Shown here: positions 3,062 to 33,413 of the stretch, piece after piece
Position numbering within the stretch: the stretch's first letter is position 1
Layout: each line of letters opens with the position of its first letter
Assembly (NCBI GenBank): GCA_037481775.1
Contig: JBBFKZ010000016.1
Location: 1-33,413, forward strand
Length of the DNA stretch: 33,413 nucleotides
Reading direction: 5' to 3'
Origin: Candidatus Bathyarchaeia archaeon
Lineage (GTDB): Archaea > Thermoproteota > Bathyarchaeia > Bathyarchaeales > Bathycorpusculaceae
The notes under the pieces: model-generated
What the model was told of the DNA's origin: nothing
Seen by the model: the letters and a program-made list of their open reading frames with translations, nothing else
Databases searched by the model: none
Position numbers and translations under genes: made by a program

Positions 3062-3158
3062 AAAGACGGGTAAATGAAAATGACATTTCCAATAGATAAA
3101 ATGTGATAAGCAAATGATTAAACAAAATGCACATACAAAACCCCAAGAGGTGAAAGTA

Positions 3159-3335
3159 ATGTACAAGAGTAGATGCCCCGATTGCGACGCTGAACTTGAT
3201 GTGCCGTCAGACACAGAGACAGGCGAGATCTTAAGTTGTCCAAGCTGCGGGCTTGAGCTTGAAGTGAAGCAGATAAAAGGCGGATGCGTTGACCTTCAAG
3301 AGCTAACTATGGAAGGAGAAGACTGGGGCGAATAA
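3159..3335 (+). CDS. lysW: Amino-group carrier protein LysW (alpha-aminoadipate/glutamate carrier)
   Basis: 58 aa from ATG 3159 after SD GAGGTGA; CPDC/CPSC zinc ribbon, acidic, C-terminal EDWGE. Confidence 0.97.
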   Translation: MYKSRCPDCDAELDVPSDTETGEILSCPSCGLELEVKQIKGGCVDLQELTMEGEDWGE

Positions 3336-3416
3336 AATATTCACCTCTAAGCTTGAAACTGACTTTGTTTCTCAAGTTTTTTAATAACCAACTTTTCCAT
3401 GGGATGCCGGCAATCA

Positions 3417-4595: not shown

Positions 4596-4620
4596 TCAAA
4601 GTAACATAAGGTGTGGCGAG

Positions 4621-5676: not shown

Positions 5677-5682
5677 TAGCCT

Positions 5683-16056: not shown

Positions 16057-16085
16057 AAATTCAGAATGGTAGGTAGTATAGGGCT

Positions 16086-17231: not shown

Positions 17232-17232
17232 A

Positions 17233-20200
17233 GTGCCCAAGTTTGACTGGATACGCAAAGTGCTGGTGCTGGGAAGCGGCGCCATAAAAATCGGAGAAGC
17301 AGCCGAATTCGATTACTCTGGAAGCCAGTGCCTCAAGGCTCTGCGAGAAGAGGGCATCGAAACTGTCCTGGTAAACCCAAATGTGGCTACTATTCAAACA
17401 GACCCACGTCTCTCCGGCAAAGTGTACCTGTTACCTGTGACGCCTGAATACGTGGAAAAGGTTATCCAAAAAGAAAGACCTGATGGAATTCTCTTAGGGT
17501 TCGGCGGTCAAACCGCGCTTAACTGCGGTGTTGAACTCGCACAGCGCGGCGTCTTTGATAAATATAACGTGAAGGTTCTCGGAACACCTGTTGAATCAAT
17601 AGAGCGTACTTCAAATAGAGAGCTCTTCAAGCAAGTAATGGCTGACGCCAATGCGCATCCATTGCGAAGTAAATCCGCCACCACAGTTAAGGATGCCATT
17701 GCAGCAGCTGAAGAAATCGGTTATCCCGTCATAGTTCGCGTTGCCTACACTCTTGGTGGTAAAGGCGCAGGCGTCGCCCATAATGCTTGGGAACTGAAAG
17801 AAATTGTAACGCGAGGCTTAGCGCAAAGCCGCATTACTCAAGTGCTTGTGGAAGAGTATGTAGGCCACTGGAAAGAACTTGAATATGAAGTTATGCGGGA
17901 CTATGCAGATAACTGCTTAATCATCTGTAACATGGAAAATTTGGATCCCATGGGTGTCCATACAGGCGATTCCATAGTCATTGCGCCTTCGCAGACGCTG
18001 ACAAACCGTGAATATCACCTCATGCGGTCAGCGTCAATAAATGCCATAAGAGCGTTGGGCATAATCGGCGAATGCAACATTCAATGGGCCCTACATCCGA
18101 AATCCGAAGAGTTCCGCGTCATCGAAGTTAATTCACGTATGTCAAGAAGCTCGGCGCTCGCAAGCAAAGTAACCGGATACCCCCTGGCATACATTGCAAC
18201 AAAATTGTCCATCGGATATCTTCTTCCCGAACTTATAAACAAAGTTACCGGCGTAACCACCGCATGCTTTGAACCAGCGCTTGATTATGTTACAATCAAG
18301 ATTCCACGATGGGACCTGCAGAAATTCAAAAACGCAGATCGCCACATCGGTCCTCAAATGCGCTCTGTCGGCGAAGTAATGGCAATCGGACGCTGCATTG
18401 AAGAGGCGCTGCAGAAGGCAGTGCGGATGTTAGATCTCGGCAAGAAGGGTCTTGTCTGCAACGATGACGAAGATGAGCCAGAACCAATTGAAACCATCAA
18501 CGATGTGCTGGCAAACCCCACCGACGAAAGACTTTTCAAAATTGTTAAAGCCATAAAAATGGGCATATCTATCGAGGAAATCTATCGCTTAAGTGGTGTT
18601 GATCCATTCTTCCTTTATAAAATTAAGAATATCATCGACATGGAAAGAAAACTTCGTAAATTAAATCTCGATGATAGCGATGCCGCCGAGATTCTGAGGG
18701 AAGCCAAGCGCTTAGGCTTCTCTGACGAGCAAATCGCAATCTGCCTAAAAACCGATCAATTTACAATAAGAGCATTCAGAAAGAAAGCAGGTATTACTCC
18801 TGTCGTAAAGCAGATTGACACTTTGGCTGCAGAGTGGCCTGCTAAAACTAATTATCTCTACATGACATACGGCGGTGACGAAGATGACCTCGAATTTAGC
18901 CGTCATGAGAGCAAAGTTATCGTTCTAGGCGCAGGAGTTTTCAGAATCGGCTCAAGCGTAGAATTTGACTGGTGTGGAGTCAACACAATTTGGGCACTTA
19001 AGAAGAACGATATCAAAGAAGCCATAATGGTTAACTACAACCCTGAAACGGTCTCAACAGATTATGATATTTCTGACAAACTGTACTTTGAAGAATTAAC
19101 CGTTGAAAGGATTCTGGACATTTACGAGAAAGAACAGCCACTAGGAGTAATCGCCAGTGTCGGCGGTCAAATCCCAAATAACTTGGCATTGAAACTGGCA
19201 AATGCGGGCGTAAAGCTTCTGGGCACTTCAGCAGAAAACATAGATTTAGCCGAGGACCGATCAAAGTTCAGCGCCCTTTTGGATGAGTTGGGCATTCCCC
19301 AGCCAGGTTGGAGCAAACTTACCTCCATCGATGCGGCTAAACGTTTCGCAGAGAAAATCGGGTATCCAGTAATAGTGCGTCCCAGCTATGTCTTGTCCGG
19401 CTCAGCCATGCGCGTGGCGTATGACGAGACTGCACTGGAAAACTTTCTCAAGTTGGCAGCCAAAGTTTCCCGCGAACATCCCGTAGTTATCTCCAAATTC
19501 ATCGAAAAGGCAAAGGAAGTTGAAGTAGACGGAGTCTCCGACGGAGAAAACGTCATAATCGGCGCCATAATGGAACATGTGGAAAATGCTGGCGTTCACA
19601 GCGGCGACGCCACAATGAGCATTCCCCCTCACACGCTTTCACCTGAGATTCAGCAAAAAATTGAAGAATGCACGCAAAAAATCGTTAAAGCCCTGAGCAT
19701 TAAGGGACCCTACAACATTCAATATCTCGTGAAGGACGGCGTGGTTCACGTTATTGAGTGTAACCTGCGTGCGTCAAGATCAATGCCATTCGTAAGCAAA
19801 ACTAGAGGCGTAAACTTAATTGAACTTGCCACGCTAGCTATGCTGGGCAAAAAGATTGAACTTAAGAAGTTGCCGCCTGCGATGCACGTGGGCGTAAAAG
19901 TTCCTCAGTTCAGTTTTATGCGGCTAAGCGGAGCAGATCCGGTCTTAGGCGTTGAAATGCTCAGCACAGGCGAGGTGGCATGTTTAGGCGAAAACTTTGC
20001 TGAAGCTTTCTCAAAAGCGTTGCAAGCAGCCGAGTTCCGAATCCCCCCTAAGGGTGGCTCAGTGCTCATAACTGTCGGAGGCGAAGAACCAAAAAGAAGA
20101 GTTGTGCCCATAGCAAAGGCTTTCGAGGAAATGGGCTTCAAAATCTATGCCACCGCGCACACTGCTGAGGTATTGCGAGCGGAAGGAATAAAAAACGTAA

Positions 20201-20499
20201 CAGTTCTACATAAGGTCAAAGAAGCCAGTGCAAGCCCGAACATTCTTGATTATCTTCGTGATCAAAAAATCGATTTGGTCATAAACGTGCCAATGGGAAG
20301 TAAGAACAAGAGCTATTCCGATGTTTTGACAGATGGCTACATAATCAGACGGCAAGCAGTGGAATTCAACGTTCCAGTCATTACGAATCTGGAGTTAGCC
20401 GCCGCGCTTGTTAAGGTCTTACAACAGCAAGGCAACAATGGTGCTACAATTCGTTCTTTGAACGAGTACATGAGTGAATTGCCTTGGCGGCTCTGGTAA
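17233..20499 (+). CDS. carB: Carbamoyl-phosphate synthase large subunit
   Basis: GSGAIKIGEAAEFDYSG, two ATP-grasp halves (HTGDS, HSGD), NPETVSTDYD, C-terminal MGS domain; GTG start. Confidence 0.97.
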   Translation: MPKFDWIRKVLVLGSGAIKIGEAAEFDYSGSQCLKALREEGIETVLVNPNVATIQTDPRLSGKVYLLPVTPEYVEKVIQKERPDGILLGFGGQTALNCGVELAQRGVFDKYNVKVLGTPVESIERTSNRELFKQVMADANAHPLRSKSATTVKDAIAAAEEIGYPVIVRVAYTLGGKGAGVAHNAWELKEIVTRGLAQSRITQVLVEEYVGHWKELEYEVMRDYADNCLIICNMENLDPMGVHTGDSIVIAPSQTLTNREYHLMRSASINAIRALGIIGECNIQWALHPKSEEFRVIEVNSRMSRSSALASKVTGYPLAYIATKLSIGYLLPELINKVTGVTTACFEPALDYVTIKIPRWDLQKFKNADRHIGPQMRSVGEVMAIGRCIEEALQKAVRMLDLGKKGLVCNDDEDEPEPIETINDVLANPTDERLFKIVKAIKMGISIEEIYRLSGVDPFFLYKIKNIIDMERKLRKLNLDDSDAAEILREAKRLGFSDEQIAICLKTDQFTIRAFRKKAGITPVVKQIDTLAAEWPAKTNYLYMTYGGDEDDLEFSRHESKVIVLGAGVFRIGSSVEFDWCGVNTIWALKKNDIKEAIMVNYNPETVSTDYDISDKLYFEELTVERILDIYEKEQPLGVIASVGGQIPNNLALKLANAGVKLLGTSAENIDLAEDRSKFSALLDELGIPQPGWSKLTSIDAAKRFAEKIGYPVIVRPSYVLSGSAMRVAYDETALENFLKLAAKVSREHPVVISKFIEKAKEVEVDGVSDGENVIIGAIMEHVENAGVHSGDATMSIPPHTLSPEIQQKIEECTQKIVKALSIKGPYNIQYLVKDGVVHVIECNLRASRSMPFVSKTRGVNLIELATLAMLGKKIELKKLPPAMHVGVKVPQFSFMRLSGADPVLGVEMLSTGEVACLGENFAEAFSKALQAAEFRIPPKGGSVLITVGGEEPKRRVVPIAKAFEEMGFKIYATAHTAEVLRAEGIKNVTVLHKVKEASASPNILDYLRDQKIDLVINVPMGSKNKSYSDVLTDGYIIRRQAVEFNVPVITNLELAAALVKVLQQQGNNGATIRSLNEYMSELPWRLW

Positions 20500-20682: not shown

Positions 20683-22191
20683 ACGAAACTCAAACCCAAA
20701 CAGAACACCCGAACAATTAAAGAAATAAACCAGAAAATACGAAAGGGCGATGTCCAAGTTTTAACCGCTGAAGAGATGAAGCGTCTCGTTGAGAGCAGCG
20801 GCGTTGAAGTTGCTTTCCGAGAAGTTGATGTTGTAACCACAGGAACTTTTGGCGCCATGTGCTCTTCAGGTGCGATTATAAACCTTGGGCATTCAGATCC
20901 GCCGATAAAAATTGAGAAAGCTTGGATAAACGACGTGCCAATCTGCCATCCCGGCGCAGCGGTGGACTTGTATATCGGCGCGACTGCCATGTCCGAGCGG
21001 CAGCCTTTCGAGTACGGCGGCGGCCATGTAATTGAGGATCTGGTAAGTTGCAAAGAAGTTGAATTGCGCGCCACATCATACGGCACCGACTGCTATCCGA
21101 GAACTCAGATACGGACGCATTTAACAAAGGATGATTTGAACCAGTTTCATCTGCTGAATTTCCGCAACTGCTATCAACGTTACGCCTGCGCCGTAAACAG
21201 CCGCGACGAGACAATTTACACTTACATGGGCAAGCTGCTGCCAAGAATGAAAAACGCCACCTACTCCGGCGCGGGCGAGTTAAATCCTCTGATGAATGAT
21301 CCTGACTACGAAACCATAGGCATCGGCACACGGATATTCCTCGGCGGAGCCCAAGGATACGTGATCGGCGAGGGAACACAGCACGATCCGCAGAACCGTT
21401 TAGGAACCATAATGGTTCGTGGAGACGCCAAGAAGATGAGTCCTGAGTTCTTGCGAGGCGCATCCTTCACGCGCTACGGTACCACACTTTACGTTGGAAT
21501 AGGCATACCTATACCCATCTTGAATGAGGGCTTGGCTAAGAAAACTGCCATACGAGATGAAGAAATCTTCACAAACGTGGTTGATTATGGTGTGCCACGC
21601 AGAGATCGCCCAGTGTTGGGCAGAGTAAGCTACAAGGAGTTGAAGTCCGGTTCAATAACTATCGGCGATAGGCGAATACGAGTTAGCTCGCTGTCCAGCT
21701 TGAAAACTGCGCGGAAAATAGCCGCCACATTGAAAAAATGGATTGAAGAAGGCGAGTTCTACTTGACAGCGCCTGTTGAGCGCTTGCCGCTTGACACCGT
21801 TTTCAAACCGATGCGGCAGACTGAAGAGGTCTCCTTCGTGGCTAACGTAATGCAAAAAGCAATCACCTGCAAGGAAACCGAGCCTCTGCAGGCTGTAGCC
21901 GAGCGCATAGTCACCCGCTCAGTAAACCACATCGTAATGGTTGACGACGCTGGCAGGCTAACTGGCATAGTAACTTCATGGGACATAACTCGCGCACTGG
22001 CATATGGCAAAACAGCGCTGGCCGACATCGTTACTCGGCGAGTAATTACCGCTAAGCCTGATGAGCCCTTAGAGATTGCTTCGAAGCGGATGGCGCAGCA
22101 TAACATTTCCGCGTTGCCCGTTATAGACAACGAAAAGAGAGTGTTGGGAATCGTCACCGCTGAGGACGTATCTAAACTGCTGGGAAGGTGA
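20683..22191 (+). CDS. L-aspartate semialdehyde sulfurtransferase (homocysteine biosynthesis, DUF39 + two CBS domains; MA1821/MJ0100-like)
   Basis: VDVVTTGTFGAMCSSGA, NFRNCYQ, TIYTYMG, GELNPLMNDP, GIGTRIFLGG, C-terminal CBS pair. Frame stays open upstream of ATG 20776 through RTIKEINQKIRKGDVQVLTAEE to TAA 20680-20682; start position (ACG 20683) is inferred. Confidence 0.9.
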   Translation, partial: TKLKPKQNTRTIKEINQKIRKGDVQVLTAEEMKRLVESSGVEVAFREVDVVTTGTFGAMCSSGAIINLGHSDPPIKIEKAWINDVPICHPGAAVDLYIGATAMSERQPFEYGGGHVIEDLVSCKEVELRATSYGTDCYPRTQIRTHLTKDDLNQFHLLNFRNCYQRYACAVNSRDETIYTYMGKLLPRMKNATYSGAGELNPLMNDPDYETIGIGTRIFLGGAQGYVIGEGTQHDPQNRLGTIMVRGDAKKMSPEFLRGASFTRYGTTLYVGIGIPIPILNEGLAKKTAIRDEEIFTNVVDYGVPRRDRPVLGRVSYKELKSGSITIGDRRIRVSSLSSLKTARKIAATLKKWIEEGEFYLTAPVERLPLDTVFKPMRQTEEVSFVANVMQKAITCKETEPLQAVAERIVTRSVNHIVMVDDAGRLTGIVTSWDITRALAYGKTALADIVTRRVITAKPDEPLEIASKRMAQHNISALPVIDNEKRVLGIVTAEDVSKLLGR

Positions 22192-22199
22192 GAGACTGA

Positions 22200-22628
22200 A
22201 TGACGCGTATACTCCTTAGGTTCTCCGAAAACATTGTTGAAGAGCCAATAATAGCACAAATAATTTTGGAATTGAAAGTGCCAATTAACATTATCACGGC
22301 GCATGTGAACTCGAAAGGCGGCGAGGTCATAGCCGAAGTGCCTAACGAAGCGCTGGACAAAGTGGTTCAAGCTTTCCGCCAACGAGGCGCGGCGGTTAGC
22401 ATACCCAAGCTTATCGAGGTCGACAGCGAGAAATGCATCAGTTGCGGCGCGTGTGTCACACTATGCCCCGTGGAGGCAATTAAAATTGACGAGGACAAAT
22501 CGATAGTTTTCGATAGAGAAAAATGCATTGGCAGCCTCTGCAGCGCATGCGTGGACGCTTGCCCAACAAGATCCATCAAATCAGTGAAGCAAAATAACAC
22601 TGAAGTCGTAGGTAACCGCGGTCACTGA
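22200..22628 (+). CDS. NIL domain + 2x[4Fe-4S] ferredoxin (MA1822-like homocysteine biosynthesis partner)
   Basis: N-terminal NIL-like LRFSENIVEEPII...INII; CISCGACVTLCP and CIGSLCSACVDACP; directly downstream of DUF39-CBS. Confidence 0.88.
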   Translation: MTRILLRFSENIVEEPIIAQIILELKVPINIITAHVNSKGGEVIAEVPNEALDKVVQAFRQRGAAVSIPKLIEVDSEKCISCGACVTLCPVEAIKIDEDKSIVFDREKCIGSLCSACVDACPTRSIKSVKQNNTEVVGNRGH

Positions 22629-22647: not shown

Positions 22648-23352
22648 ATGAAAAGCCTCCTCAAAGAACCTTTTATTTTCAAAGAATCCCAATGCGTAAT
22701 AATCGCCGACAAGCCAGAAGGTCTCCAAGCAGCTAAAGAATCCATTAAGCAACACAGGCGCAAGCTAGAAGAATACATTAAAACTAACCCACGATTTTTG
22801 CATACGCTCGAGCCTGTAGCGGTTCCTAGTAAACCGCTGGTTGCCAAGCTCATGGCGGAAGCAGCGGAGAAAGCAAATGTCGGACCCATGGCGGCTGTCG
22901 CCGGCGTCCTAGCCGACTTAGCAGTAAAGGCTATGCTGCGCGCCGGTTGCGAAGTGGCGGTCGTAGAAAACGGCGGTGAAATCTCAGCAGTGGCAAACGT
23001 GCCCATCGACGTGGCGGTTGCCGTGGGCGACACGCCACTATCAAAGCGATTCGGCTTCAGACTAACGGAGTTCCCAATAGGCGTCGCCACAAGCTCTGGG
23101 CGGTTCAGCCACGCCTTAAGCTTCGGAGACGCAGACGCTGCAACGGTCTTCTGCAAAAACGCAGGATTAGCCGATGCAGCAGCAACAGCAGTATGCAACG
23201 TGGTTAAAGGAGAGGACTGCCAAGCCGCCATCCACGCTGGGATGAACAAAGCGCTTTCCATTCAAGGCGTCGAAGGAGTACTCATAATCTACAAGGATTT
23301 CACAGGAACCGCAGGCAAAATTCCACAAATAATCAAAATAAGTTCAATATGA
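22648..23352 (+). CDS. UPF0280 / ApbE-like protein (COG2122, MA1715-like sulfide assimilation)
   Basis: VGPMAAVAG, VENGGEI, GVATSSG, HALSFGDADA, ADAAATAVCN. Confidence 0.88.
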   Translation: MKSLLKEPFIFKESQCVIIADKPEGLQAAKESIKQHRRKLEEYIKTNPRFLHTLEPVAVPSKPLVAKLMAEAAEKANVGPMAAVAGVLADLAVKAMLRAGCEVAVVENGGEISAVANVPIDVAVAVGDTPLSKRFGFRLTEFPIGVATSSGRFSHALSFGDADAATVFCKNAGLADAAATAVCNVVKGEDCQAAIHAGMNKALSIQGVEGVLIIYKDFTGTAGKIPQIIKISSI

Positions 23353-23562: not shown

Positions 23563-24009
23563 TCATTGGAAATATTTTTTGATTTCTTCGAGTGAAAGAA
23601 CCATGATGCCCTTCTCTTTTAATATTCTCTCGGCATTTTCTAAGTCACTGGCTCGCAGAATCAACGCGATTTTGCCGTCCACATGCACCGCAGAAGAATA
23701 TGCGTACTCGATGTTTATGCCGCCATCAGCCAGAATCTTGGTTATTTTAGACATTTTATTCTCTTCCGTAATGAAAACCGCCGTCACTTCTGTGTTTTTC
23801 TTTGACTTCGCAAGATTGTAATCTGCTGCCTCCAAAACAGTTGTCGCTTTAACAGGATCTTCTGTCACCATCCGCACTAACCCAAACTCGCCAGCATCAG
23901 CAATCGATAGCGCAAAAACTCTAATTCCATTCTTATCCAACTGAGCCATAGCCTCAGACAAAGAACCCGGCCTATTATCCAGATAAACGCTCACTTGTGG
24001 TATAGGCAT
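23563..24009 (-). CDS. Tandem ACT domain protein (type commonly linked to paaK)
   Basis: QVSVYLDNRPGSL, ALSIADAGEFGLVR, GINIEYAYS; ATG 24009. Confidence 0.88.
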   Translation of the reverse strand: MPIPQVSVYLDNRPGSLSEAMAQLDKNGIRVFALSIADAGEFGLVRMVTEDPVKATTVLEAADYNLAKSKKNTEVTAVFITEENKMSKITKILADGGINIEYAYSSAVHVDGKIALILRASDLENAERILKEKGIMVLSLEEIKKYFQ

Positions 24010-24099
24010 AAAGACCACGGTTCTCAATTAGCTTCAGACAATATTTATATTTTCACATAAGCTATAGTAAACGATTCATCATCTCGGAGACAGCGCTGC

Positions 24100-24837
24100 T
24101 TGCTAGAGTGTGTCGAAATCTCAAAACGCTTCGGCGGACTTCAAGCATTAAAGAAAGTAAACTTAACAGTTAACAAAAACGAAATCGCAGGGCTCGTTGG
24201 CCCCAACGGCTCAGGAAAATCAACATTACTAAACCTCATAAGCGGCGTTTATAAACCTGATTCAGGGAAAATTCTTTTTCTAAACGAAGACATCTCCTCG
24301 CTCCCACCATACGCTGTTTGCTCTAAAGGTATAGCAAAAACTTCGCAGACGGTTCAATCCTTCCCAGATTTGACTGTGATTGAAAATGTGCTTGCCGGAG
24401 TGCTGTTTGCTCAGAAAAAAACCGCAGACAACTCTGATCCTGAAGAAAGCGCAAAAGAACTTTTGGAATTTGTAGGTATAGACAAAACAAAATTCAATGT
24501 GGAAGCCAAAAACCTGAACGTGATTGAATTACGCCGTGTTCAACTTGCCAAAGCGCTGGCAACCATGCCTAAATTACTGCTTTTAGATGAGCTTCTCACA
24601 GGCTTAACTCCAAAAGAAAGTGATGAAGCTATCGAACTGATAAAACTCATCAATAAACAGGGAATAACCGTGCTTATAGTTGAGCATGTAATGCGCGTCA
24701 TTATGGGCTTATGTAATCGCGTAACAGTCTTGCATCACGGCGAAAAAATCTTTGAAGGTACACCAAAAGAAGTAGTTAACAACGAGAACGTGATAAAAGT
24801 GTACCTCGGCAAAAGATACCTGCTCTGTGAGGACTAA
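24100..24837 (+). CDS. livG: HAAT/Liv-type ABC transporter ATP-binding subunit (LivG-like)
   Basis: SKRFGGLQAL, GPNGSGKST, LLLDE, IVEH, VIKVYLG; TTG start. Confidence 0.9.
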   Translation: MLECVEISKRFGGLQALKKVNLTVNKNEIAGLVGPNGSGKSTLLNLISGVYKPDSGKILFLNEDISSLPPYAVCSKGIAKTSQTVQSFPDLTVIENVLAGVLFAQKKTADNSDPEESAKELLEFVGIDKTKFNVEAKNLNVIELRRVQLAKALATMPKLLLLDELLTGLTPKESDEAIELIKLINKQGITVLIVEHVMRVIMGLCNRVTVLHHGEKIFEGTPKEVVNNENVIKVYLGKRYLLCED

Positions 24838-24838
24838 G

Positions 24839-25543
24839 ATGTTAGAAATCAAAAATGTATCCGCCTCATACGGCATGATTCAGATACTTCGCGACGTATC
24901 ATTTCATGTTAAAGAAAAAGAAATTGTCAGCATCATAGGTCCCAACGGCGCAGGAAAAACAACTCTCGTTAAGACAATCGTGGGTTTGTTACATCCGACA
25001 AAAGGAGAAATTCGTTTTAAAGGCGAAAACATAGAAAAGCTGCCACCATACGAAATAGTGAAAAGAAACATAACCTTAATTCCTGAAGGCAGAGAAATTT
25101 TCCCTAAAATGACAGTCGAAGAAAACCTTCTGTTAGGTGCATACACAATTAACGATAGAGATAAAATAAAAGAAGCAAAAGAACGTGGTTACCAAATTTT
25201 CCCGGTGCTTAAGAAAAAAGAAAAAGCGCTGGCTCAAACTCTCAGCGGTGGTGAGCAGCAAATGCTTGTAATCTGCAGAAGTTTAATGTCAAACCCGGAG
25301 ATGTTAATTTTAGATGAGCCTTCTCTTGGATTAGCACCGCTAATCGTGGAGAAAGTATTGGATACAGTGCGTAAAATCAATGAAGAAGGCGTCACCATCC
25401 TTCTAGTTGAGCAGAATATTCGTGATTCTCTTGAAATTGCTGATAGAGGATACGTTCTTGAGCAAGGTAGAGTAATTTTAGAAGGAACAAGTAGAGAACT
25501 TTTATGCAGTAAACACATAAAAGAAGCATATTTAGGCCTTTAA
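24839..25543 (+). CDS. livF: HAAT/Liv-type ABC transporter ATP-binding subunit (LivF-like)
   Basis: GPNGAGKTT, PEGREIF, LSGGEQQML, LDEPSLGLAP, VEQN, EAYLG; ATG 24839 after GAGG. Confidence 0.92.
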   Translation: MLEIKNVSASYGMIQILRDVSFHVKEKEIVSIIGPNGAGKTTLVKTIVGLLHPTKGEIRFKGENIEKLPPYEIVKRNITLIPEGREIFPKMTVEENLLLGAYTINDRDKIKEAKERGYQIFPVLKKKEKALAQTLSGGEQQMLVICRSLMSNPEMLILDEPSLGLAPLIVEKVLDTVRKINEEGVTILLVEQNIRDSLEIADRGYVLEQGRVILEGTSRELLCSKHIKEAYLGL

Positions 25544-25555
25544 AAAGTGATAAAC

Positions 25556-26875
25556 ATGAATGGCAGCGAATATTGGAACGAAAAAATCGAAACCATGCCC
25601 ATACAAGAGTTAAGAAAACACCAGTTTAGAAAGCTCAAAGAACAAGTAAAACACTGCTACGAAAACAGTGTGTTCTATAGGAAAAAATTCAAAGACGCTG
25701 GATTAAAGCCTGAAGACATTAAAACATTGGAAGACCTGCAGAAAATCCCCTTCACCGTGAAAGATGATCTTAGAGACAACTACCCTTTAGGTATGCTCGC
25801 GGTTAACCCTACAGACATAGTTGAAATTCACGCCTCTAGCGGAACAACTGGGAACCCTATAATCGGCGCCTACACGAAAAATGACATTGACGTATGGCGA
25901 GAACTGATGGCACGCACCATCTACACTGCCGGCGGAAGAAAAGAAGACGTGATCCACATCGCCTATGGCTACGGACTATTCACAGGCGGCTTAGGCTTCC
26001 ATTATGGTGCTCAAGCAATCGGAGCAATGGTAATTCCAGCAAGTGGCGGGATGACACAGCGGCAAATAAAACTCATGAAAGACCTGTGCGCTACAGTGCT
26101 ATGCTGTACTCCAAGCTTCGCAGTTTACCTCGCCGAAACAATGGCGAAAGAAGGAATAAACCCCAAAAAGGATCTGAAACTCAGGCTCGGCCTCTTCGGA
26201 GCAGAACCATGGTCCGAAAAAATCAGAGAACGCATCGAGGCAGAACTCGGCATAGAAGCCTTCGACATCTATGGTCTAACTGAACTCTGCGGTCCAGGCG
26301 TTTCCATAGAATGCAATGAACATGAGGGGCTACATATTTGGGAAGACCACTTCATTGTAGAAACGATTGACCCTGAAACTGGCGAGATTTTATCTCCAGG
26401 AGAAGAAGGCGAATTAGTTTTTACGACGCTGACCAAAACGGGCATTCCGATGCTGCGTTTCAGAACTAGAGACCTTTCAGTGCTAGCCACTGAAAAATGC
26501 GCTTGCGGTCGCACTCATGCGCGGATGCTGAGGGTAATGGGCAGATCAGATGATATGTTAATCATAAGGGGAGTCAATGTCTTTCCCTCACAGGTAGAAT
26601 ACGCCGTGATGTGCTTCCCAGAATTAGCTGCTCAATATCAAATAATTGTTGACAGACCGGGAGCTTTGGATACGTTTGCTGTAAAAGTGGAGTTAACCGA
26701 ACAAGCGTCGCATGATAAGCAGTTAGACAAAGAGGCGCTTAAACGTAGAATCCAGGAAAAAATCCATGGAATAACAGGGTTATCTGCGGAAATCGAAATC
26801 GTGCCTTGTGGTGAAATCCCCCGAAGCGAAGGAAAAGCAAAAAGAGTCTTAGATCTACGCAAGGGCAAAACGTGA
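25556..26875 (+). CDS. paaK: Phenylacetate/aryl-acid CoA ligase (PaaK family)
   Basis: HASSGTTG, YGYGLFTGGLGFHYG, FGAEPWS, DIYGLTE, HIWEDHF, GRSDDMLIIRGVNVFP, GKAKRV. Start 25556 (GTG 25547 alternative). Confidence 0.92.
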   Translation: MNGSEYWNEKIETMPIQELRKHQFRKLKEQVKHCYENSVFYRKKFKDAGLKPEDIKTLEDLQKIPFTVKDDLRDNYPLGMLAVNPTDIVEIHASSGTTGNPIIGAYTKNDIDVWRELMARTIYTAGGRKEDVIHIAYGYGLFTGGLGFHYGAQAIGAMVIPASGGMTQRQIKLMKDLCATVLCCTPSFAVYLAETMAKEGINPKKDLKLRLGLFGAEPWSEKIRERIEAELGIEAFDIYGLTELCGPGVSIECNEHEGLHIWEDHFIVETIDPETGEILSPGEEGELVFTTLTKTGIPMLRFRTRDLSVLATEKCACGRTHARMLRVMGRSDDMLIIRGVNVFPSQVEYAVMCFPELAAQYQIIVDRPGALDTFAVKVELTEQASHDKQLDKEALKRRIQEKIHGITGLSAEIEIVPCGEIPRSEGKAKRVLDLRKGKT

Positions 26876-26888
26876 AGGCCATAACCAA

Positions 26889-29075
26889 ATGAAAAAAATT
26901 GCGATAGACCAGCCTGGAAAGGTCGTTCTGCTTAACGGCGATGAAGCGGTTGCCAGAGGCGCAATCGAAGCAGGCATTAAGATGGCTGCCTCTTATCCAG
27001 GTACTCCAGCAACAGAAATTCTGGAGACAATAGCTGAGGTTGCAAATGCTTTTGGAATCTACGCTGAATGGAGCGTAAACGAGATAGTTGCCACCGAAGT
27101 GGCTGCTGGCGCTTCGATGTCCAATGCACGATCCATGGTTTCCATGAAGCATGTGGGATTAAACGTGGCTGCTGACGCTGTTATGACGCTGGCATACACG
27201 GGTGTGGAGGGTGGCATGGTTATCGCGGTCTGCGATGACCCTGCGATGCACAGTAGCCAGAATGAGCAAGATACGAGATATTTTTCTGTTCATTCAAATT
27301 TGCCTCTGTTGGATGCAGGTAACCCGCAAGAAGCTTTGGATATGACGCGGGAAGCCTTTGAAATAAGTGAAAAACTAAAGTTGCCTGTTATAGTGCGGTT
27401 GACCACGCGGGTGGCTCATGGGAAAGCACGAGTAAAACTTGGGAGAATCCAGAAAGCTAACCGGCAAGTTGAGTTTGACAAGAATGGCGCACGGTGGGTT
27501 ATGGTGCCCTCAAACGCTATTAGGCAGCATAAGATTCTGCAGCTTAAACTTGCTGAAGCAAAAAAACTTGTTAATAATTCCAGATTTAACGTCATTGAAG
27601 ACAACGGAAGTCAAGTGGGTATAGTTGGAAGCGGCGTAGGCTATTACTACGCGCGTTCCATACTGGATACAAGTAAATTTTCCTGGTTGAAGTTAGGCTT
27701 CGTATATCCATTTCCGTCAGACATTGTTAAGGAGTTTGCTTCGAAAGTAAAGACGATAATTGTTGTTGAAGAACTGCGCCCTTACCTCGAAGAGAACATG
27801 CAGCGATTAAACCTAAACTTCTTAGGCAAGGAACATCTGGGATTGGATGAAACTGGAGAGTTCACTCCAGACACATTGCGCGAAGCATTTTCAAGGTTAG
27901 GATTATGCGATAAACCAGAAAACCCGGAAGAGTTGGCGCTACCCCCGCGACCACCCGTTTTATGTCCAGGTTGCCCCCACCGGGCTTTCTATTATTCTCT
28001 AAACATGGTTAGTCAATCCATTAATTGCGATCCTCAAAAATGTGTAGGATGCGTTATCTGCGAGTACGCCTGCTCATGGACCAAAGAACAAGTGTTCAAT
28101 CCACTAAAGTCCAGAATACGCGCAATAAGACTTGATCCGTTTTCCAATGCAGCTATAGCATGCAAAATCTGCAAAGAAGCACCTTGCGTAGCCGCTTGCC
28201 CCGAAAAAGCGCTGCGGCAGTCCCCTGAAACCGGAATTGTGGCAGTCGACGAGGACAAATGTACCGGCTGCGGCTGGTGTGTAAGCGCTTGTGATCACGG
28301 AGCTATAACTCTGCATCCAAATAAGCATAAAGCTATTGTTTGCGACATGTGTAACGGTGAACCCGAATGTGTTCGGTTCTGCCCAGAAGGCGCCTTAAGC
28401 TTCTCGGGCAAAACAACTGATAAAATCGTTACAGGCGACATAGGCTGCTACACTTTAGGTGTTCTTCCGCCAGTGAACACTGTGCACACTTGCCTATGTA
28501 TGGGCGCTGGAATTTCGCAGGCAGCAGGGATGTTTCACGCTGGCATAAAAGACAAAGTGTTTGCAGTCATAGGCGACTCAACTTTCTTTCATGCTGGAAT
28601 GCCCGGTTTGCTTAACATAGTATATAACAAAGCAAACGTGTGCGTGATTGTTTTGGATAATCGTTCTGTAGCCATGACCGGGCATCAGCCAACACCGGGT
28701 TCCGGAAAAACCGCCATGGGCACAGATGCAAAAATAATTCGGATTCAAGACATTGCAAAAAGCTTTGGAATCGAAAAAGTTGCAGTTGTTGACCCCTACG
28801 ACGTGCAGAAAACAACCAAAGTGCTACGTGAGATGCTTAGCTATCAGGGCCCATCAGTGATAATTTCTGAGAGACCTTGCCCCCTCAGGATTGAAAGAGG
28901 GCCGGCGCGTGAGGTCTCAAAAGAATGTAATTCATGTGGTATGTGCGTGAAAGTTTTCGGTTGCCCAGCCATCTCTCTAACTGTCGAACGGGCGGAGATA
29001 GATCCAACTCTCTGCTGGGGCTGCGGTGTCTGCGAGCAAGTTTGTCCCTTCGGCGCGATAAGGAGCACTGGTTAG
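26889..29075 (+). CDS. iorA: Indolepyruvate:ferredoxin oxidoreductase alpha subunit with inserted polyferredoxin domain
   Basis: YPGTPATEI, EWSVNE, MKHVGLNVAAD, SSQNEQD, RPPVLCPGCPHR, GDIGCY, GDSTFFH TPP motif, AMTGHQP, C-terminal 2x[4Fe-4S]; plus a 16-Cys insert at aa ~374-510. Confidence 0.93.
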   Translation: MKKIAIDQPGKVVLLNGDEAVARGAIEAGIKMAASYPGTPATEILETIAEVANAFGIYAEWSVNEIVATEVAAGASMSNARSMVSMKHVGLNVAADAVMTLAYTGVEGGMVIAVCDDPAMHSSQNEQDTRYFSVHSNLPLLDAGNPQEALDMTREAFEISEKLKLPVIVRLTTRVAHGKARVKLGRIQKANRQVEFDKNGARWVMVPSNAIRQHKILQLKLAEAKKLVNNSRFNVIEDNGSQVGIVGSGVGYYYARSILDTSKFSWLKLGFVYPFPSDIVKEFASKVKTIIVVEELRPYLEENMQRLNLNFLGKEHLGLDETGEFTPDTLREAFSRLGLCDKPENPEELALPPRPPVLCPGCPHRAFYYSLNMVSQSINCDPQKCVGCVICEYACSWTKEQVFNPLKSRIRAIRLDPFSNAAIACKICKEAPCVAACPEKALRQSPETGIVAVDEDKCTGCGWCVSACDHGAITLHPNKHKAIVCDMCNGEPECVRFCPEGALSFSGKTTDKIVTGDIGCYTLGVLPPVNTVHTCLCMGAGISQAAGMFHAGIKDKVFAVIGDSTFFHAGMPGLLNIVYNKANVCVIVLDNRSVAMTGHQPTPGSGKTAMGTDAKIIRIQDIAKSFGIEKVAVVDPYDVQKTTKVLREMLSYQGPSVIISERPCPLRIERGPAREVSKECNSCGMCVKVFGCPAISLTVERAEIDPTLCWGCGVCEQVCPFGAIRSTG

Positions 29076-29076
29076 A

Positions 29077-29673
29077 ATGAAGCTGGATGTGATTTTCGCG
29101 GGCGTTGGCGGACAAGGTGTAGTGGTATTAAGCGATATTTTCTGTGAGGCGGCACTGCTGGATGGGTTTGATGTTGCAAAAGCAGAAGTTCACGGCATGG
29201 CTCAGCGAGGCGGCTCAATCGTTGCGTACGCCCGAATCGGCGATAAGGTTGAATCGCCTCTAATAGAGCGAGGAAAGGCTGATGTAATATTAGGTTTCGA
29301 GGTTCTTGAAACTGCAAGAGTTCTGCGCATGTTAAAGAATAAAGGCACCGTAGTCATGAACACGAAGTATATACCTCCCAATGTCGTGTTCCAAGACTTA
29401 GCATCTAAACCCGTTAAGATAGATGAGCTAATTGGTGTGATAAGGAAGAAGGCATCTAGAGTTTACGAAATAGACGCTATACGCATCGCCACTGAGCTTG
29501 GGAACCCCATTGTTGTCAACACAGTGCTTCTCGGAGCGCTTTCAGCTATTCCAGAGAATCCTATAAAAAAGGAAACATTAGAGAAGGCCATGTGCGAGCG
29601 GCTCAAAGGGAGGCACCTTGACATTAATTTGAAAGCTTTTCAGCGTGGCAGAGAAAGCGTACTTTTGAGTTAA
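29077..29673 (+). CDS. iorB: Indolepyruvate:ferredoxin oxidoreductase beta subunit
   Basis: GVGGQG, EVHGMAQRGGS, NTVLLGAL, NLKAFQRG. Confidence 0.94.
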   Translation: MKLDVIFAGVGGQGVVVLSDIFCEAALLDGFDVAKAEVHGMAQRGGSIVAYARIGDKVESPLIERGKADVILGFEVLETARVLRMLKNKGTVVMNTKYIPPNVVFQDLASKPVKIDELIGVIRKKASRVYEIDAIRIATELGNPIVVNTVLLGALSAIPENPIKKETLEKAMCERLKGRHLDINLKAFQRGRESVLLS

Positions 29674-29724: not shown

Positions 29725-31119
29725 ATGCAAAAGAAGTTAGTTATTGCTCTTATTGCTGTAATCGTAATTATCACCGCAGTCGTTGCTTCATGGCAATTAA
29801 CCCAGCTGCCTTCATCTGAGGCGCGCCCAATCAAGATAGGTTTGGTTGCATGTTATGAAAAAGCTGAGGGCCAAGACATGGATCGCGCAGCTAAACTGGC
29901 AGTTAAAGAGATTAATGACGCCGGTGGAGTTTATGTGCGAGACTGGCATACCAAGGTTCCCATCGAATTAGTTATAGTTGATACGCAAGATGATACACCA
30001 AGTAAATCCGTTGGTCCTGTAACCCGCGCAATAATAGAAGACGAAGTTGACTTGTTGATCGGCGGCTACACAAGCGCCGGCACTCTCGCTAATCAGGTTG
30101 TAGCAATTGAACATCGTGTTCCCTACATAATAACAGGTGCATCGACAAGTCTTGTCACAAGAAGAGGCCCTCAAGGCAATTATGGCGGATTACCTGATGG
30201 CGATACGCGAAGAATTGAAGATGCTGAAGGAATGAGTTACATGTTTCACTATTGTACAACAACTGCTGATTACAGCAAAACTGTAGTTAAGTTCTTTGCT
30301 GAAGAAATGAAACCTTTGCTTGACAGTAAGTATGGCTTTGATTCTTCTAGAAAGCTTAGGCTAGCTATACTTTACCGTGACGATGCTTTTGGCAAGGGCG
30401 TTGCCGCTGATACTAAAGCATTAATACAGAGTTATAATTTGCCCATAGAAATTGTCGCTGAGAGGAGTTACCCAACAACTGCTACTTCCTTCCAAACTGA
30501 TCTCACTGCCGTGAAAGACGCTAGTCCTGATGCAGTGTATGTTGTAGACTTTATCGCGAACACTGCTGAAATTATCAAGGAAGGACAGAGAGACGTAGGC
30601 TTAAACACTGTATACATCGCTGTTGAATGTTGTGAAGACCCAGCGTTCTACACTCTTCTAGGCCCATACGGTCATGAACAACTGTTAGAATCAAAGTTTG
30701 CTCCATATGCTGGTCCTCCATACTATCTTGCTTCAATCGAAAACTACGTGAAAAAATATCAGGAAACGTATGGCACGCTTCCAGGAATGATGGGTGCTGA
30801 CACATACGATGCTTTCTACATAGCTAAAGATGCAATTGAGCGCGCAGGCACATTAGACAAAGCGGCAATTAGAGATGCTTTAGAATCATGCGCTTTAGAT
30901 CAGATATTGATAATAACTGAAACGGGCAAAATAGAATTCAGCACTGGCACAAACTATCACGAGATTGCACCAGTAACTTTCGTTGAGCAGCTTATATGGA
31001 ATGCGGATGTCAACGAGTGTAGATCTGTAATAGTGTATCCTGCAACTGCGCCAGGCGTTGGCAAATTAAAGCAGGCTGACTTTGTTCTGCCAACTGCTTA
31101 CGCACCAGGAAGTCCGTAG
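29725..31119 (+). CDS. livK: HAAT/Liv-type substrate-binding protein with N-terminal membrane anchor
   Basis: Hydrophobic N-terminus, IKIG...AAKLAVKEINDAGGV, GGYTS, DDAFGKG, YDAFYIAKDAIERAG. Ligand not determinable. Confidence 0.85.
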   Translation: MQKKLVIALIAVIVIITAVVASWQLTQLPSSEARPIKIGLVACYEKAEGQDMDRAAKLAVKEINDAGGVYVRDWHTKVPIELVIVDTQDDTPSKSVGPVTRAIIEDEVDLLIGGYTSAGTLANQVVAIEHRVPYIITGASTSLVTRRGPQGNYGGLPDGDTRRIEDAEGMSYMFHYCTTTADYSKTVVKFFAEEMKPLLDSKYGFDSSRKLRLAILYRDDAFGKGVAADTKALIQSYNLPIEIVAERSYPTTATSFQTDLTAVKDASPDAVYVVDFIANTAEIIKEGQRDVGLNTVYIAVECCEDPAFYTLLGPYGHEQLLESKFAPYAGPPYYLASIENYVKKYQETYGTLPGMMGADTYDAFYIAKDAIERAGTLDKAAIRDALESCALDQILIITETGKIEFSTGTNYHEIAPVTFVEQLIWNADVNECRSVIVYPATAPGVGKLKQADFVLPTAYAPGSP

Positions 31120-31134
31120 GCTTTCTTAATCAAA

Positions 31135-31153
31135 CTTTTTTCTTTTATTGTTT
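31135..31153 (+). terminator. T-rich terminator after substrate-binding protein gene
   Basis: TTTTTTCTTTTATTGTTT shortly after stop 31119. Confidence 0.4.
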
Positions 31154-31207
31154 GAGTCTCGTATATTTTAAATATTCATCATGAGAAAATAGGTGGGTCG
31201 ATACTGC

Positions 31208-32080
31208 ATGATTACCTCTGGCTTAATTCAAGCATTGCTTTGGGGGATAGCCAGCGGTTGCGTTTATATACTGTTGGCTACTGGATTAAACATCATCTTC
31301 GGAGTTATGAAACTCGTCAATTTTGCCCATGGTCAATTACTGATGATTGGCGCCTACATCGCTTTTACGGTAACCAGCGCACTTGGGCTAAATGCCTACA
31401 TTGCTATTCTGGTTGCCATGGGCGCTGTTGCTCTAATCGGCGTTGGCCTTGAAAGATTCACCTTTCGCAAGGTTCTTGGAACCGATAAGTTGAATGAAAT
31501 CTTCATCAGTCTTGGCTTAATTTACGTGTTTGAAAACGCTGCTGTTCTTCTCTGGGGGAATACCCCCCAGCAGATTCCAAGTCCACTCAAAGGAACCCAA
31601 CTCTACATAGGACAAATCGCAATTGGTTACGATCGTCTACTGGCCATTTTAATTGTAGGCGTCATACTGTTTGCTCTTTTCCTTTTGCTAAAGAAAACCA
31701 AAATAGGCTTGGCTATGCGCGCAACCAGCCAAAAAAGTAGCGCTTCAATGCTTATGGGTGTTAACATCGAAAAGGTCTATATTTTCACTTTTGCTTTGGG
31801 CGCCGCGTTAGCGGGCGCCGCCGGAGCACTGTACGGAATGATTTTTCCCTTCGATCCAAGCATCGGCGCGCTTCCCACGATCAAAGCTTTTGCCATAATC
31901 ATAATTGGAGGTTTAGGCAGCATACCTGGCGCAGTGATTGGCGGTCTTCTCTATGGTATAGCGGAGAACCTCGCGGTCTACCTTCTTGGTGGAATATGGC
32001 AAGACGCTATAGCTTTCGCTTTGCTCATAATCGTGCTCGTAATTAGACCAACCGGAATTTTCGGTGAGAGAGGTGAATAA
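31208..32080 (+). CDS. livH: HAAT/Liv-type permease (LivH-like)
   Basis: GLNIIFGVMKLVNFAHG, GLAMRA, GGLGSIPGA, RPTGIFG; ATG 31208 (GTG 31193 alternative). Confidence 0.92.
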   Translation: MITSGLIQALLWGIASGCVYILLATGLNIIFGVMKLVNFAHGQLLMIGAYIAFTVTSALGLNAYIAILVAMGAVALIGVGLERFTFRKVLGTDKLNEIFISLGLIYVFENAAVLLWGNTPQQIPSPLKGTQLYIGQIAIGYDRLLAILIVGVILFALFLLLKKTKIGLAMRATSQKSSASMLMGVNIEKVYIFTFALGAALAGAAGALYGMIFPFDPSIGALPTIKAFAIIIIGGLGSIPGAVIGGLLYGIAENLAVYLLGGIWQDAIAFALLIIVLVIRPTGIFGERGE

Positions 32081-33139
32081 ATGGCTATAAAAAAGGCATT
32101 CGCAAACTCGTTTAGTTTAGTTAAGAGCGAAGTAGCGGATTTTTATCGCTCCCAAAAACTTTACCCTGTTATAATCACCCTAATTATCGCGGCGATTATG
32201 CCCTTTTTCGTAAGTAGCTACGTAATTAGTGAAGTCTTAACACCAATGATTATCTTCGCAATTTACGCTTCAAGCTGGAACCTGCTTGCCTCTTCAGGGC
32301 AAGGCTCCTTGGGGCACGCGGCTTTCTTGGGCATAGGCGGCTTCACCTCGGCTTTGCTTACAATCAAATTAGGCTTACCATCAATAGCTAGTCTCTTTTT
32401 GGGCAGCTTGATTTCAGCTGCGATAGGCGTGCTAATAGGCCTAGCATGTGTTAGGTTGAAAGCATGGTTTCTAGCCATGGTTACTTTCGGCTTCTCCGTA
32501 ATCATCGTCACCATTTTCAGCGAATTTGACGAGTTCACCGGTGCCATCATGGGCTTCAGAACTCCGCTTATAGTTGAGCGTGGCATTCCATTTTATTACA
32601 CGGCACTTGTTTTTTCAGCAATTTCTATCTTCATAATTTATCTTATAATGAAATCGAAACTGGGCCTGGCTTTCAGAGCCATACACCAGAACGAGCTTGA
32701 AGCTAAAATGATCGGCATCAACACCGCTAAGTACCGTCTAATCGCTTTTGTTATTAGCACTTTCTTTGCGGGCTTAGCAGGAGAACTTTACGCCCAGTCA
32801 ATCCAATATATTCAAAATTTTATTTTTGCGCCTTACTATTCGTTTTTGCCGCTTATGATGTCTGTTATCGGCGGATTAGGCACCATAGAAGGGCCAATAG
32901 TTGGTTCCGTCATAATTAGAGTAATCGACTCTTACCTGCCCAGTGTAGACTCTGCGCTGGACGGCCTGCTTCACCCCTTATTTCCTAGCGTAAGTCATGT
33001 CGGTCCTCCACTACGCATGTTAGGTCTAGGTGTATTCTTCATTGTGATTGTAATTTTTGCGCCAAAAGGTGTGTCTCCTCTTATAAAGAAAGCATACAAT
33101 TATTTACGCAGTAGCCCAAAGGAGAAAAAAACACGATGA
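32081..33139 (+). CDS. livM: HAAT/Liv-type permease (LivM-like)
   Basis: WNLL..SGQGSLGHAAF, GLAFRAIHQNE, GGLGTIEGP, FAPKG. Confidence 0.9.
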   Translation: MAIKKAFANSFSLVKSEVADFYRSQKLYPVIITLIIAAIMPFFVSSYVISEVLTPMIIFAIYASSWNLLASSGQGSLGHAAFLGIGGFTSALLTIKLGLPSIASLFLGSLISAAIGVLIGLACVRLKAWFLAMVTFGFSVIIVTIFSEFDEFTGAIMGFRTPLIVERGIPFYYTALVFSAISIFIIYLIMKSKLGLAFRAIHQNELEAKMIGINTAKYRLIAFVISTFFAGLAGELYAQSIQYIQNFIFAPYYSFLPLMMSVIGGLGTIEGPIVGSVIIRVIDSYLPSVDSALDGLLHPLFPSVSHVGPPLRMLGLGVFFIVIVIFAPKGVSPLIKKAYNYLRSSPKEKKTR

Positions 33140-33413
33140 AAGGTAAAGATATCTTCCGAGAAAATTTGGGAATCCAAGTTCTTGAAGTAAAAGATGGTTA
33201 CGCAAAGCTCTCTCTGAAATTAACGAAAAACCACATAAACTCTCTGGGTGCAGCTCATGGTGGAGCAATTTTTGCATTAGCCGATTGCGCCTTTGCAGAG
33301 GCTGCTAATTTTGGAGAAAATGTCGCGGTTGCGGTGCAAGTGAGCATTAATTTTCTGAAGCCAGCGTTCGAGGGCGATACTCTTACAGCAGAGGCCGTAA
33401 GGGTATCTGAGGG
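33136..33413 (+). CDS. paaI: PaaI-family hotdog thioesterase, 3'-truncated (not in ORF track)
   Basis: ATG 33136 overlaps the livM stop (ATGA); translation MKGKDIFRENLGIQVLEVKDGYAKLSLKLTKNHINSLGAAHGGAIFALADCAF...SINFLKPA has the N..G..HGG...LAD motif. Confidence 0.88.
   Translation, partial: MKGKDIFRENLGIQVLEVKDGYAKLSLKLTKNHINSLGAAHGGAIFALADCAFAEAANFGENVAVAVQVSINFLKPAFEGDTLTAEAVRVSE

Follow-up and report, generated by a model that had tools for sequence, protein, structure and literature searches.

Indolepyruvate:ferredoxin oxidoreductase (IOR) belongs to a group of enzymes that hold a central place in the anaerobic metabolism of amino acids and aromatic compounds and that can also work in reverse, fixing CO2. 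In Methanococcus maripaludis, aryl acids are used for aromatic amino acids in an IOR-dependent way. A second group of proteins relevant here comprises the small four-cluster iron-sulfur (Fe-S) subunits of the tungsten aldehyde oxidoreductases (AOR), such as WorS and AorA. The passages of PMC12318220 that deal with these subunits describe how their C-terminal helix docks on the C-terminal domain of the following subunit, so that an Fe-S nanowire is built, how deletion of the helix abolishes nanowire assembly, and how in WorSL the cluster S1 of the N-terminal domain lies 10.8 A from the AOR cluster, with the C-terminal domain carrying electrons onward. The two groups meet in the iorA gene described here, which lies in a stretch of 33,413 nucleotides from Candidatus Bathyarchaeia archaeon (GCA_037481775.1, contig JBBFKZ010000016.1, positions 1 to 33,413 of the forward strand; hereafter the window). 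Its product is an IOR alpha subunit that carries, within its catalytic core, an inserted polyferredoxin domain of the AOR small-subunit type. The gene and its parts are the following:

26889..29075, plus strand: iorA, insert-bearing alpha subunit of IOR (728 aa, a single open frame; TIGR03336)
26889..28007, plus strand: IorA aa 1-373, pyrimidine-binding domain, domain II and the start of the thiamine pyrophosphate (TPP) domain with Cys359 and Cys362 (CPGCPH) (Pfam, NCBIfam)
28008..28421, plus strand: inserted 4x[4Fe-4S] polyferredoxin domain of the AOR small-subunit (WorS/AorA) type, without C-terminal tail (aa 374-511)
28422..28883, plus strand: IorA aa 512-665, TPP-binding domain with Cys520 (GDIGC) and Cys664 (Pfam TPP_enzyme_C)
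28884..29075, plus strand: IorA aa 666-728, usual C-terminal 2x[4Fe-4S] ferredoxin domain, and stop codon (Pfam Fer4)

The protein is an IorA by score, domain set and partner gene, and its activity on indolepyruvate or other arylpyruvates, with ferredoxin as partner, is predicted. It matches the IOR alpha-subunit equivalog of NCBIfam (TIGR03336) with 709.6 bits, above the cut-off of 650.9, and the match falls into two stretches, broken in the search of the genome between model positions 376 and 377. A profile search of the source genome (1.82 Mb, 96.7% complete) finds no other IorA above this cut-off. The domain set is that of the family, with POR_N (aa 24-194), TPP_enzyme_C (aa 517-658, E 8e-25), the C-terminal 2x[4Fe-4S] domain, recognised as Fer4 (aa 703-725), and four cysteines (C359, C362, C520 and C664) that all of 79 aligned IorAs share without exception and that we take, by homology to pyruvate:ferredoxin oxidoreductase (PFOR), to be the ligands of the TPP-proximal cluster. 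Furthermore, a gene with a POR domain, the adjacent iorB, begins 2 nt past iorA. An AlphaFold2 (AF2) model of IorA (mean predicted local distance difference test, pLDDT, 87.3; predicted template modelling score, pTM, 0.84) has a PFOR-like fold, and no IOR chain is among the matches of the PDB sequence or fold searches.

The IorA translation contains both flanks, CPGCPHRAFYYSLNM and KIVTGDIGCYTLG, around an in-frame insert of 138 aa with 17 Cys, of which 16 form four motifs (C385/388/391/395, C425/428/433/437, C458/461/464/468 and C485/488/494/498) and the remaining one is C380. Within it the Pfam models Fer4_11, Fer4_7 and Fer4_9 are matched with E values of 8e-12 to 1e-12. The insert stands between the second and the third conserved Cys (C362 and C520) of the presumed proximal-cluster motif. 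When the protein is aligned with 19 insert-free IorAs from its order, only a few residues separate the two flanks, and the gap between CxxCxH and GDIGC measures 151 aa in most insert-bearing relatives (146-152) as against 15 aa in two distant insert-free loci. The GC content runs without a step into the insert (0.46-0.51 within, 0.41-0.47 alongside). By its motifs the insert is a complete four-cluster polyferredoxin in which all four clusters are predicted to be occupied. The usual C-terminal ferredoxin domain is kept as well: its eight cysteines (C680/683/686/692 and C709/712/715/719) occur in every one of 63 insert-bearing rows and in 15-16 of the 16 rows that lack the insert, so that up to seven [4Fe-4S] clusters per alpha subunit, as predicted from the motifs, is a fair count. 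The first-pass annotation of this stretch had described an in-frame ferredoxin of about 137 aa, with 16 Cys in four groups, inserted in the catalytic core of IorA between flanks normally a few residues apart. It had placed the domain next to the ligands of the TPP-proximal cluster, with the C-terminal domain retained and up to seven clusters in all. This picture holds, with C380 added and with the position beside the ligands depending on the assignment from PFOR given above. As a separate observation, the cysteines at aa 115, 380, 535 and 585 (nt 27231, 28026, 28491 and 28641) are invariant in 63 of 63 sequences of the insert clade, while C115, C535 and C585 occur in at most one of 16 insert-free IorAs and C380 in none of the 16.

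From a technical perspective, such an architecture could be produced by an assembly chimera or a mis-called frame, and a chimeric junction had been named beforehand as what would overturn the claim. We regard this explanation as ruled out, its probability being practically nil. The gene is a single open frame, the exact protein is present on three contigs, and a near-identical member of its cluster (at least 90% identity) lies on a contig of 1.86 Mb. An 851-base stretch was found in sequencing runs of 17 studies, with no RNA data set among the 24 runs listed, and the junctions were checked in contigs from four runs (X9, X10, X12 and X13) that were not flagged as possible sources of the window DNA. 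One 30.9-kb contig of X9 covers the whole stretch, as a near-identical record that may itself be a source; one contig of X10 bridges both junctions; contigs of X12 and X13 bridge single junctions, one of the X13 bridges reaching only 28 letters past the junction where 31 were required. No alternative joint was present among the contigs of these four runs. Moreover, among the matches listed, 120 of 120 relatives span the whole junction query at 70-100% identity, and 110 of them share the full length (727-731 aa), the other 10 being shorter. The same architecture recurs in 62 loci of different species representatives.

Those 62 loci come from a scan of species representatives that gave 72 loci in total; they carry the full insert (gap of 146-152 aa, 17-18 Cys), and the other 10 consist of three close insert-free relatives, one half insert, two distant insert-free loci (44% identity, with bacterial titles) and four fragments. 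Most of the 72 are labelled Candidatus Bathyarchaeota, Bathyarchaeia, Bathyarchaeales or Bathycorpusculum (order Bathyarchaeales), and the few labelled with other taxa are taken as binning or naming differences. In a sample of the phylum (201 genomes), junction-spanning matches occur in five genomes, all from the window's own family. In a sample of the order (81 genomes), 45 have an IorA match at E<=1e-30; these divide into 16 with the split, insert-bearing form, 22 with a contiguous one, one with a gap of 24 aa, one in two fragments and five with weak matches only. Ten of the 16 insert genomes belong to one family (f1) and six to a single genus of another (f5), and none of the 16 has a second IorA at E<=1e-30. 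Among 1.84 billion protein representatives at 50% identity, no full-length protein outside the cluster of the window protein spans both junctions; the same set holds two fragments, one for each junction, and a 607-aa insert-free relative. The architecture is thus common within one archaeal order, and the dozens of Bathyarchaeales species that bear it come from soils, peat, sediments, hot springs and termite guts. In trees of the IorA core, a long stem (about 1.0 changes per column) separates the insert lineage from the clade of ordinary Bathyarchaeia IorAs. It was also observed in the core trees that the insert-form IorAs of the f5 genus nest within those of f1, other genomes of both families carrying an ordinary IorA; this nesting suggests that the operon has crossed family lines, or else that one form has displaced the other.

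Where the inserted domain came from is indicated by its closest relatives. The best PDB sequence matches are WorS of Acetomicrobium mobile (9mqx_E, E 1e-28), AorA of Aromatoleum aromaticum (8c0z_C) and WOR5-S of Pyrococcus furiosus (6x6u_B and 6x1o_B), with E values of 1e-28 to 3e-25 over about 125-130 residues and with the four Cys motifs in common. In the phylum, the best matches other than IorA are stand-alone open reading frames (ORFs) of about 160-260 aa, with 46-64% identity to the insert among the best 60 or so, and in 18 of 18 fetched loci, which hold 20 such ORFs and cover 10 family codes of the phylum, the stand-alone relative directly adjoins a gene with AFOR_N and AFOR_C domains. 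The source genome itself has three stand-alone paralogues, two following AOR genes and one standing alone. A tree of 89 sequences groups the 16 inserts into a single clade (starred support of 96), whose sister (93) is a stand-alone polyferredoxin group holding all 20 AOR-linked ones, and a core tree from which the insert columns were dropped recovers the same subclades as the insert tree. One insert clade with shared subclades indicates that the domain entered once and then evolved together with the host gene; separate searches and trees for insert and flanks had been proposed as a check, and the trees agree with this account. As far as these alignments and trees can tell, we are dealing with a genuine, single-origin insertion of the gene for an AOR-type small subunit. 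What the insert does not share with its relatives lies at its end. In 23 of 23 stand-alone relatives, 29-71 residues follow the last CP motif, mostly with a conserved stretch resembling LAQKAR..KKLF. In the insert the chain passes from this motif straight into IorA, so that there is no tail and no C-terminal helix, and the alignment with 9mqx_E covers residues 7-131 of 152. Nor is the insert a separate polypeptide beside an AOR gene, being internal to IorA in a window with no AOR gene. Two side observations follow. One protein, P0144 (897 aa), has a long N-terminal part followed in the same chain by this polyferredoxin domain at residues 691-825; if the N-terminal part is an AOR catalytic subunit, as it appears by eye, this would be another fusion capture of the domain. 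In the source genome, a fourth AOR gene on the minus strand (G000:C2:61894-63212; L065:4853-6972) is split into two ORFs, with one TAG within the match, and may be a pseudogene or reflect a frameshift or a sequencing error.

All 17 Cys of the insert are invariant in 63 of 63 insert-bearing sequences. The mean pairwise identity is 70.5% in the insert, 73.9% in the C-terminal ferredoxin domain, 77.5% in the N-terminal part and 81.6% in the TPP domain. The insert, to judge by this pattern, is kept under selection.

The genes that surround iorAB are listed below in the order of the window:

23563..24027, minus strand: protein with a pair of ACT domains, divergent from the operon (Pfam ACT_8; homologue in 9 of 15 relatives' loci)
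24100..25543, plus strand: two ABC ATPase genes, LivG/LivF-like (Pfam ABC_tran, BCA_ABC_TP_C)
25547..26875, plus strand: PaaK-like arylacetate-CoA ligase, AMP-forming, ending 14 nt upstream of iorA (Pfam AMP-binding, AMP-binding_C_2)
29077..29673, plus strand: iorB, beta subunit, POR domain III (Pfam POR, E 3.6e-42)
29725..33139, plus strand: Liv-type solute-binding protein and two permease genes (Pfam Peripla_BP_6, BPD_transp_2 twice)
33136..33411, plus strand: 4HBT-fold thioesterase gene, cut by the window end (Pfam 4HBT; homologue in 11 of 15 relatives)

The ligase scores 569.7 bits against TIGR02155, below the cut-off of 646.3, and iorB 180.7 bits against TIGR03334, below 205.8. A PaaK homologue lies within 100 nt upstream of the insert-form iorA in 15 of 15 relatives (16 of 16 with the window), and the binding protein and permeases are all found downstream in 11 of the 15. 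Next to the insert-free iorA genes, a PaaK gene adjoins in 0 of 19, the nearest ones being 2.0 and 5.4 kb away. The neighbours of these genes are instead 3-hydroxyacyl-CoA dehydrogenase, enoyl-CoA hydratase, acyl-CoA dehydrogenase, a beta-eliminating lyase and an ADP-forming acyl-CoA synthetase, a catabolic-looking context. In amino-acid fermentation, IOR is usually paired with an ADP-forming synthetase, according to the portion of PMC5817080 that treats this pathway. The combination of an AMP-forming ligase with an importer suggests that imported aryl acids are activated, and the operon enzyme would then handle imported aryl acids or aromatic amino acids. As to direction, we lean slightly towards the reductive one, in which arylacetyl-CoA + CO2 + 2 e- would yield arylpyruvate as a salvage route to aromatic amino acids, and the PaaK-plus-importer context together with the AOR ancestry of the insert makes it plausible that IOR docks onto a low-potential donor that would drive reductive carboxylation, as the first-pass annotation had suggested with CO dehydrogenase, hydrogenase, tungsten AOR or a bifurcating complex in view. 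Upstream of the operon, the window contains other genes that are recorded here for completeness. A block of amino-acid biosynthesis genes (3399-8789 and 13367-20499) comprises a LysW/Arg-type set (RimK-like ATP-grasp, semialdehyde dehydrogenase, amino-acid kinase, class III aminotransferase, M20 peptidase) and then argininosuccinate synthase, argininosuccinate lyase and carbamoyl-phosphate synthase. Positions 20776-22628 hold a homocysteine-biosynthesis enzyme (HcyBio and CBS domains) followed by a 2x[4Fe-4S] ferredoxin with a NIL domain, and positions 22648-23352 a 234-aa ORF with no Pfam match.

For the function of the insert, we give somewhat better than even credence to the idea that it works in cis as a built-in electron wire, which with seven clusters would provide the enzyme with a second electron port. 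In such a scheme, an ancestor of the PaaK-coupled IorA lineage in Bathyarchaeales would have taken up the gene for an AOR-type small four-cluster Fe-S subunit into a surface loop between the second and the third Cys of the TPP-proximal cluster motif, the C-terminal tail not being kept. Since both ends of the insert are tethered at most about 20 residues from proximal-cluster Cys, the half formed by its N and C termini would be placed beside that cluster, in a manner that would parallel the packing of the WorS N-terminal domain on the AOR cluster, and the other half would point outwards. The enzyme would then offer a port on the insert in addition to the one on its usual C-terminal ferredoxin domain. 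This added port might be used by a partner that is not the customary small ferredoxin, or it might simply buffer electrons. A complex prediction of IorA residues 1-373 and 512-728 with the insert (374-511) gave an interface score (ipSAE) of 0.00 in two runs, a value that has no bearing on docking.

Several findings weigh against this proposal and against the reductive direction attached to it. To begin with, the insert is dispensable in nature. Three species (L070-L072, where L070 is P0133) have the same operon without it: on either flank their IorA matches the window protein at 69-71% identity, with PaaK still upstream and the binding protein still downstream of the gene. Their IorAs nest within the insert clade, with a support of 82 in the Shimodaira-Hasegawa-like approximate likelihood-ratio test (SH-aLRT) in a 36-row maximum-likelihood tree and starred values of 97, 99, 95 and 97 in a 73-row one. 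Approximately unbiased (AU) tests did not reject trees holding all insert rows together (p 0.073 and p 0.455), in our reading because the long outgroup branch can attach beside L070-L072. At the insertion site the linker of these proteins is longer by about a dozen residues, which show a likeness to both ends of the insert. A secondary loss is probable, the linker remnants being the one ground for favouring it. In a further species (L087, IorA ORF 2974-4959), the insert has lost 77 aa in frame between two 'CEY' sites, and with them C395 and motifs II and III, so that 9 of the 17 Cys are gone and 8 are left. This protein is 90% identical to that of its full-insert neighbour L088 and has no PaaK gene nearby. 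In the AF2 model the insert is less confidently placed than the rest, with 10-residue pLDDT blocks of 59 to 82 against the chain mean given above. No partner for a second port was identified among the candidates checked, an orphan AOR and a hydrogenase cluster. Finally, an AMP-forming ligase with a thioesterase fits a catabolic route too, and the genome has its own shikimate-pathway genes (chorismate synthase, EPSP synthase, prephenate dehydratase). Moreover, no other IOR was found in these genomes, so that the insert form may have to work both ways.

The natural losses speak for the reading of the insert as a passenger or mainly structural domain, which would bind clusters yet be inessential to catalysis or partner choice, kept by a weak selection that might act, for instance, on stability or on a general buffering of electrons. 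In L070-L072 and L087 the gene is intact after the insert has gone or been half deleted, the former keep their operon partners, and canonical IorAs work without any insert. We nevertheless consider a passenger unlikely, as it fits poorly with the invariance of the 17 Cys, with an identity close to that of the C-terminal ferredoxin domain, with retention in 62 of 72 species-representative loci and with the strict tie to one operon type. The descent from AOR small subunits speaks for another reading, in which the outward half of the insert would still accept, in trans, the C-terminal helix of free AOR-type small subunits or a similar helix on a hydrogenase or Bfu subunit. IOR would thereby be plugged into a tungsten AOR or a hydrogenase chain, and the oxidation of aldehyde or H2 at very low potential could drive reductive carboxylation while bypassing the ferredoxin pool. 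Docking of this kind has a model in the WorS/AorA helix and, likewise, in the WorA helix that recruits WorS in the part of PMC12318220 concerned with these contacts, and the two AOR and small-subunit pairs of the source genome do have the conserved tail on their small subunits. The co-occurrence of such pairs with the insert is nevertheless little informative, since they span 10 family codes.

Two concrete candidates for a partner were examined. An AOR gene without an adjoining small-subunit gene (G000:C1:197596-199479, minus strand; L064:5594-7480) is flanked by genes for a class I/II and a class IV aminotransferase and looks like part of an amino-acid catabolic trio; we rejected it as a general partner, its orthologues (at least 57% identity) being present in only 5 of the 16 insert genomes, while many insert-free genomes have them too. 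A five-gene cluster with NuoE-, NuoF- and NuoG-like proteins and the small and large subunits of a [NiFe] hydrogenase lies divergently beside paaK-iorAB in two of eight annotated loci of relatives (L012:5852-9264 and L013:987-4357), which speaks for a link; in the source genome, against it, the cluster is on another contig (G000:C1:11084-15887; L067:4084-8887), beside a second hydrogenase with a FAD/NAD-binding subunit. On balance we think docking in trans improbable, and we are slightly more sceptical still of its most specific form, in which the insert, having lost its own helix, is the receiving end of a protein nanowire and binds the helix of an AOR-type polyferredoxin, a hydrogenase or a Bfu adaptor. 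If that were true, an AOR or [NiFe] hydrogenase would be hard-wired to IOR at potentials below the ferredoxin pool, giving Bathyarchaeia a carbon-fixing salvage of aromatic amino acids from arylacetyl-CoA to arylpyruvate. Very improbable, in our estimate, is a link between protomers, in which the inserts of neighbouring alpha subunits touch and form a nanowire or couple the active sites of a dimer: WorS, AorA and HycB3/4, its homologues, do form Fe-S nanowires according to PMC12318220, but assembly there needs the C-terminal helix, and the insert lacks the tail that all 23 stand-alone relatives possess. The in-cis wire with a second port thus remains the reading we prefer.

No description or characterisation of an IorA with an internal four-cluster insert was found in the literature searched (on IOR, IorA structure, Bathyarchaeota, aryl acids and iron-sulfur insertion); IorA and the AOR-type subunits are themselves known. 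The earlier annotation, which was not aware of any such description, is borne out to this extent. It had allowed that the architecture might prove common and already characterised: common it is, in one archaeal order, yet no characterised case came to light. A whole four-cluster subunit inserted between two presumed cluster-binding Cys of a TPP enzyme, with close insert-free relatives and one half-deleted form as natural controls, offers a clean system for the effect of extra Fe-S wiring on bias, partner choice and electron buffering of a 2-oxoacid oxidoreductase. Bathyarchaeia are described as abundant in anoxic sediments and soils in PMC9534799, so that the enzyme also bears on the turnover of aromatic compounds in these environments.

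Compared with canonical IorA/IorB (TIGR03336/TIGR03334), the window protein has the same domain order (POR_N, domain II, TPP domain, C-terminal 2x[4Fe-4S]), the same four presumed proximal-cluster Cys and an adjacent iorB. It differs in the 138-aa four-cluster domain between Cys362 and Cys520, in its long-stem lineage and in the coupling to a PaaK-like gene. Single-chain PFOR (PDB 7plm, 6cin and 1b0p) shares the fold of the whole chain (Foldseek E about 1e-21, TM-score 0.55 on the query). Its built-in ferredoxin domain is an internal wire as well, with two clusters and at another place in the chain, and no chain of PFOR or of another 2-oxoacid:ferredoxin oxidoreductase (OFOR) is found among 60 of the 61 PDB sequence matches to the insert. 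Among NCBIfam models the best for the insert is PadI (NF045766), the beta subunit of an NADH-dependent phenylglyoxylate dehydrogenase, with 88.5 bits against a cut-off of 700, so that the insert is no PadI by this measure. Residues 3-134 of the insert match model positions 5-137 of 443, and the module, internal in IorA, is N-terminal there. The match suggests that this type of polyferredoxin module is attached to a subunit of another aryl-2-oxoacid oxidoreductase too. PadI is absent from 25 of the 26 family matches of the ordinary OFOR beta subunit of the same genome; as a precedent it could not be confirmed, the searched literature having given nothing on PadI.

The subunits of the CooF, HydN, HycB and DmsB type have the superfamily and the Cys pattern in common with the insert, and CooF and HycB3/4 are called homologues of WorS in the relevant passages of PMC12318220. 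The label CooF/HydN-like given at first is therefore right at the level of the superfamily. At the level of the equivalog it does not stand, as the insert scores 52.3 bits against HydN (NF007658, cut-off 260) and 66.2 against DmsB (cut-off 214.1), and AOR-type subunits are clearly closer. It is with WorS, AorA and WOR5-S that the likeness goes furthest, in the four Cys motifs and in the AOR genes adjoining the nearest stand-alone relatives in Bathyarchaeia. Unlike them, the insert is not a free subunit, does not stand beside an AOR gene, has no C-terminal tail and carries the extra invariant Cys380. By its sequence, then, the insert descends from, and probably works like, a WorS/AorA subunit, from which it departs in being part of another protein and in lacking the C-terminal helix.

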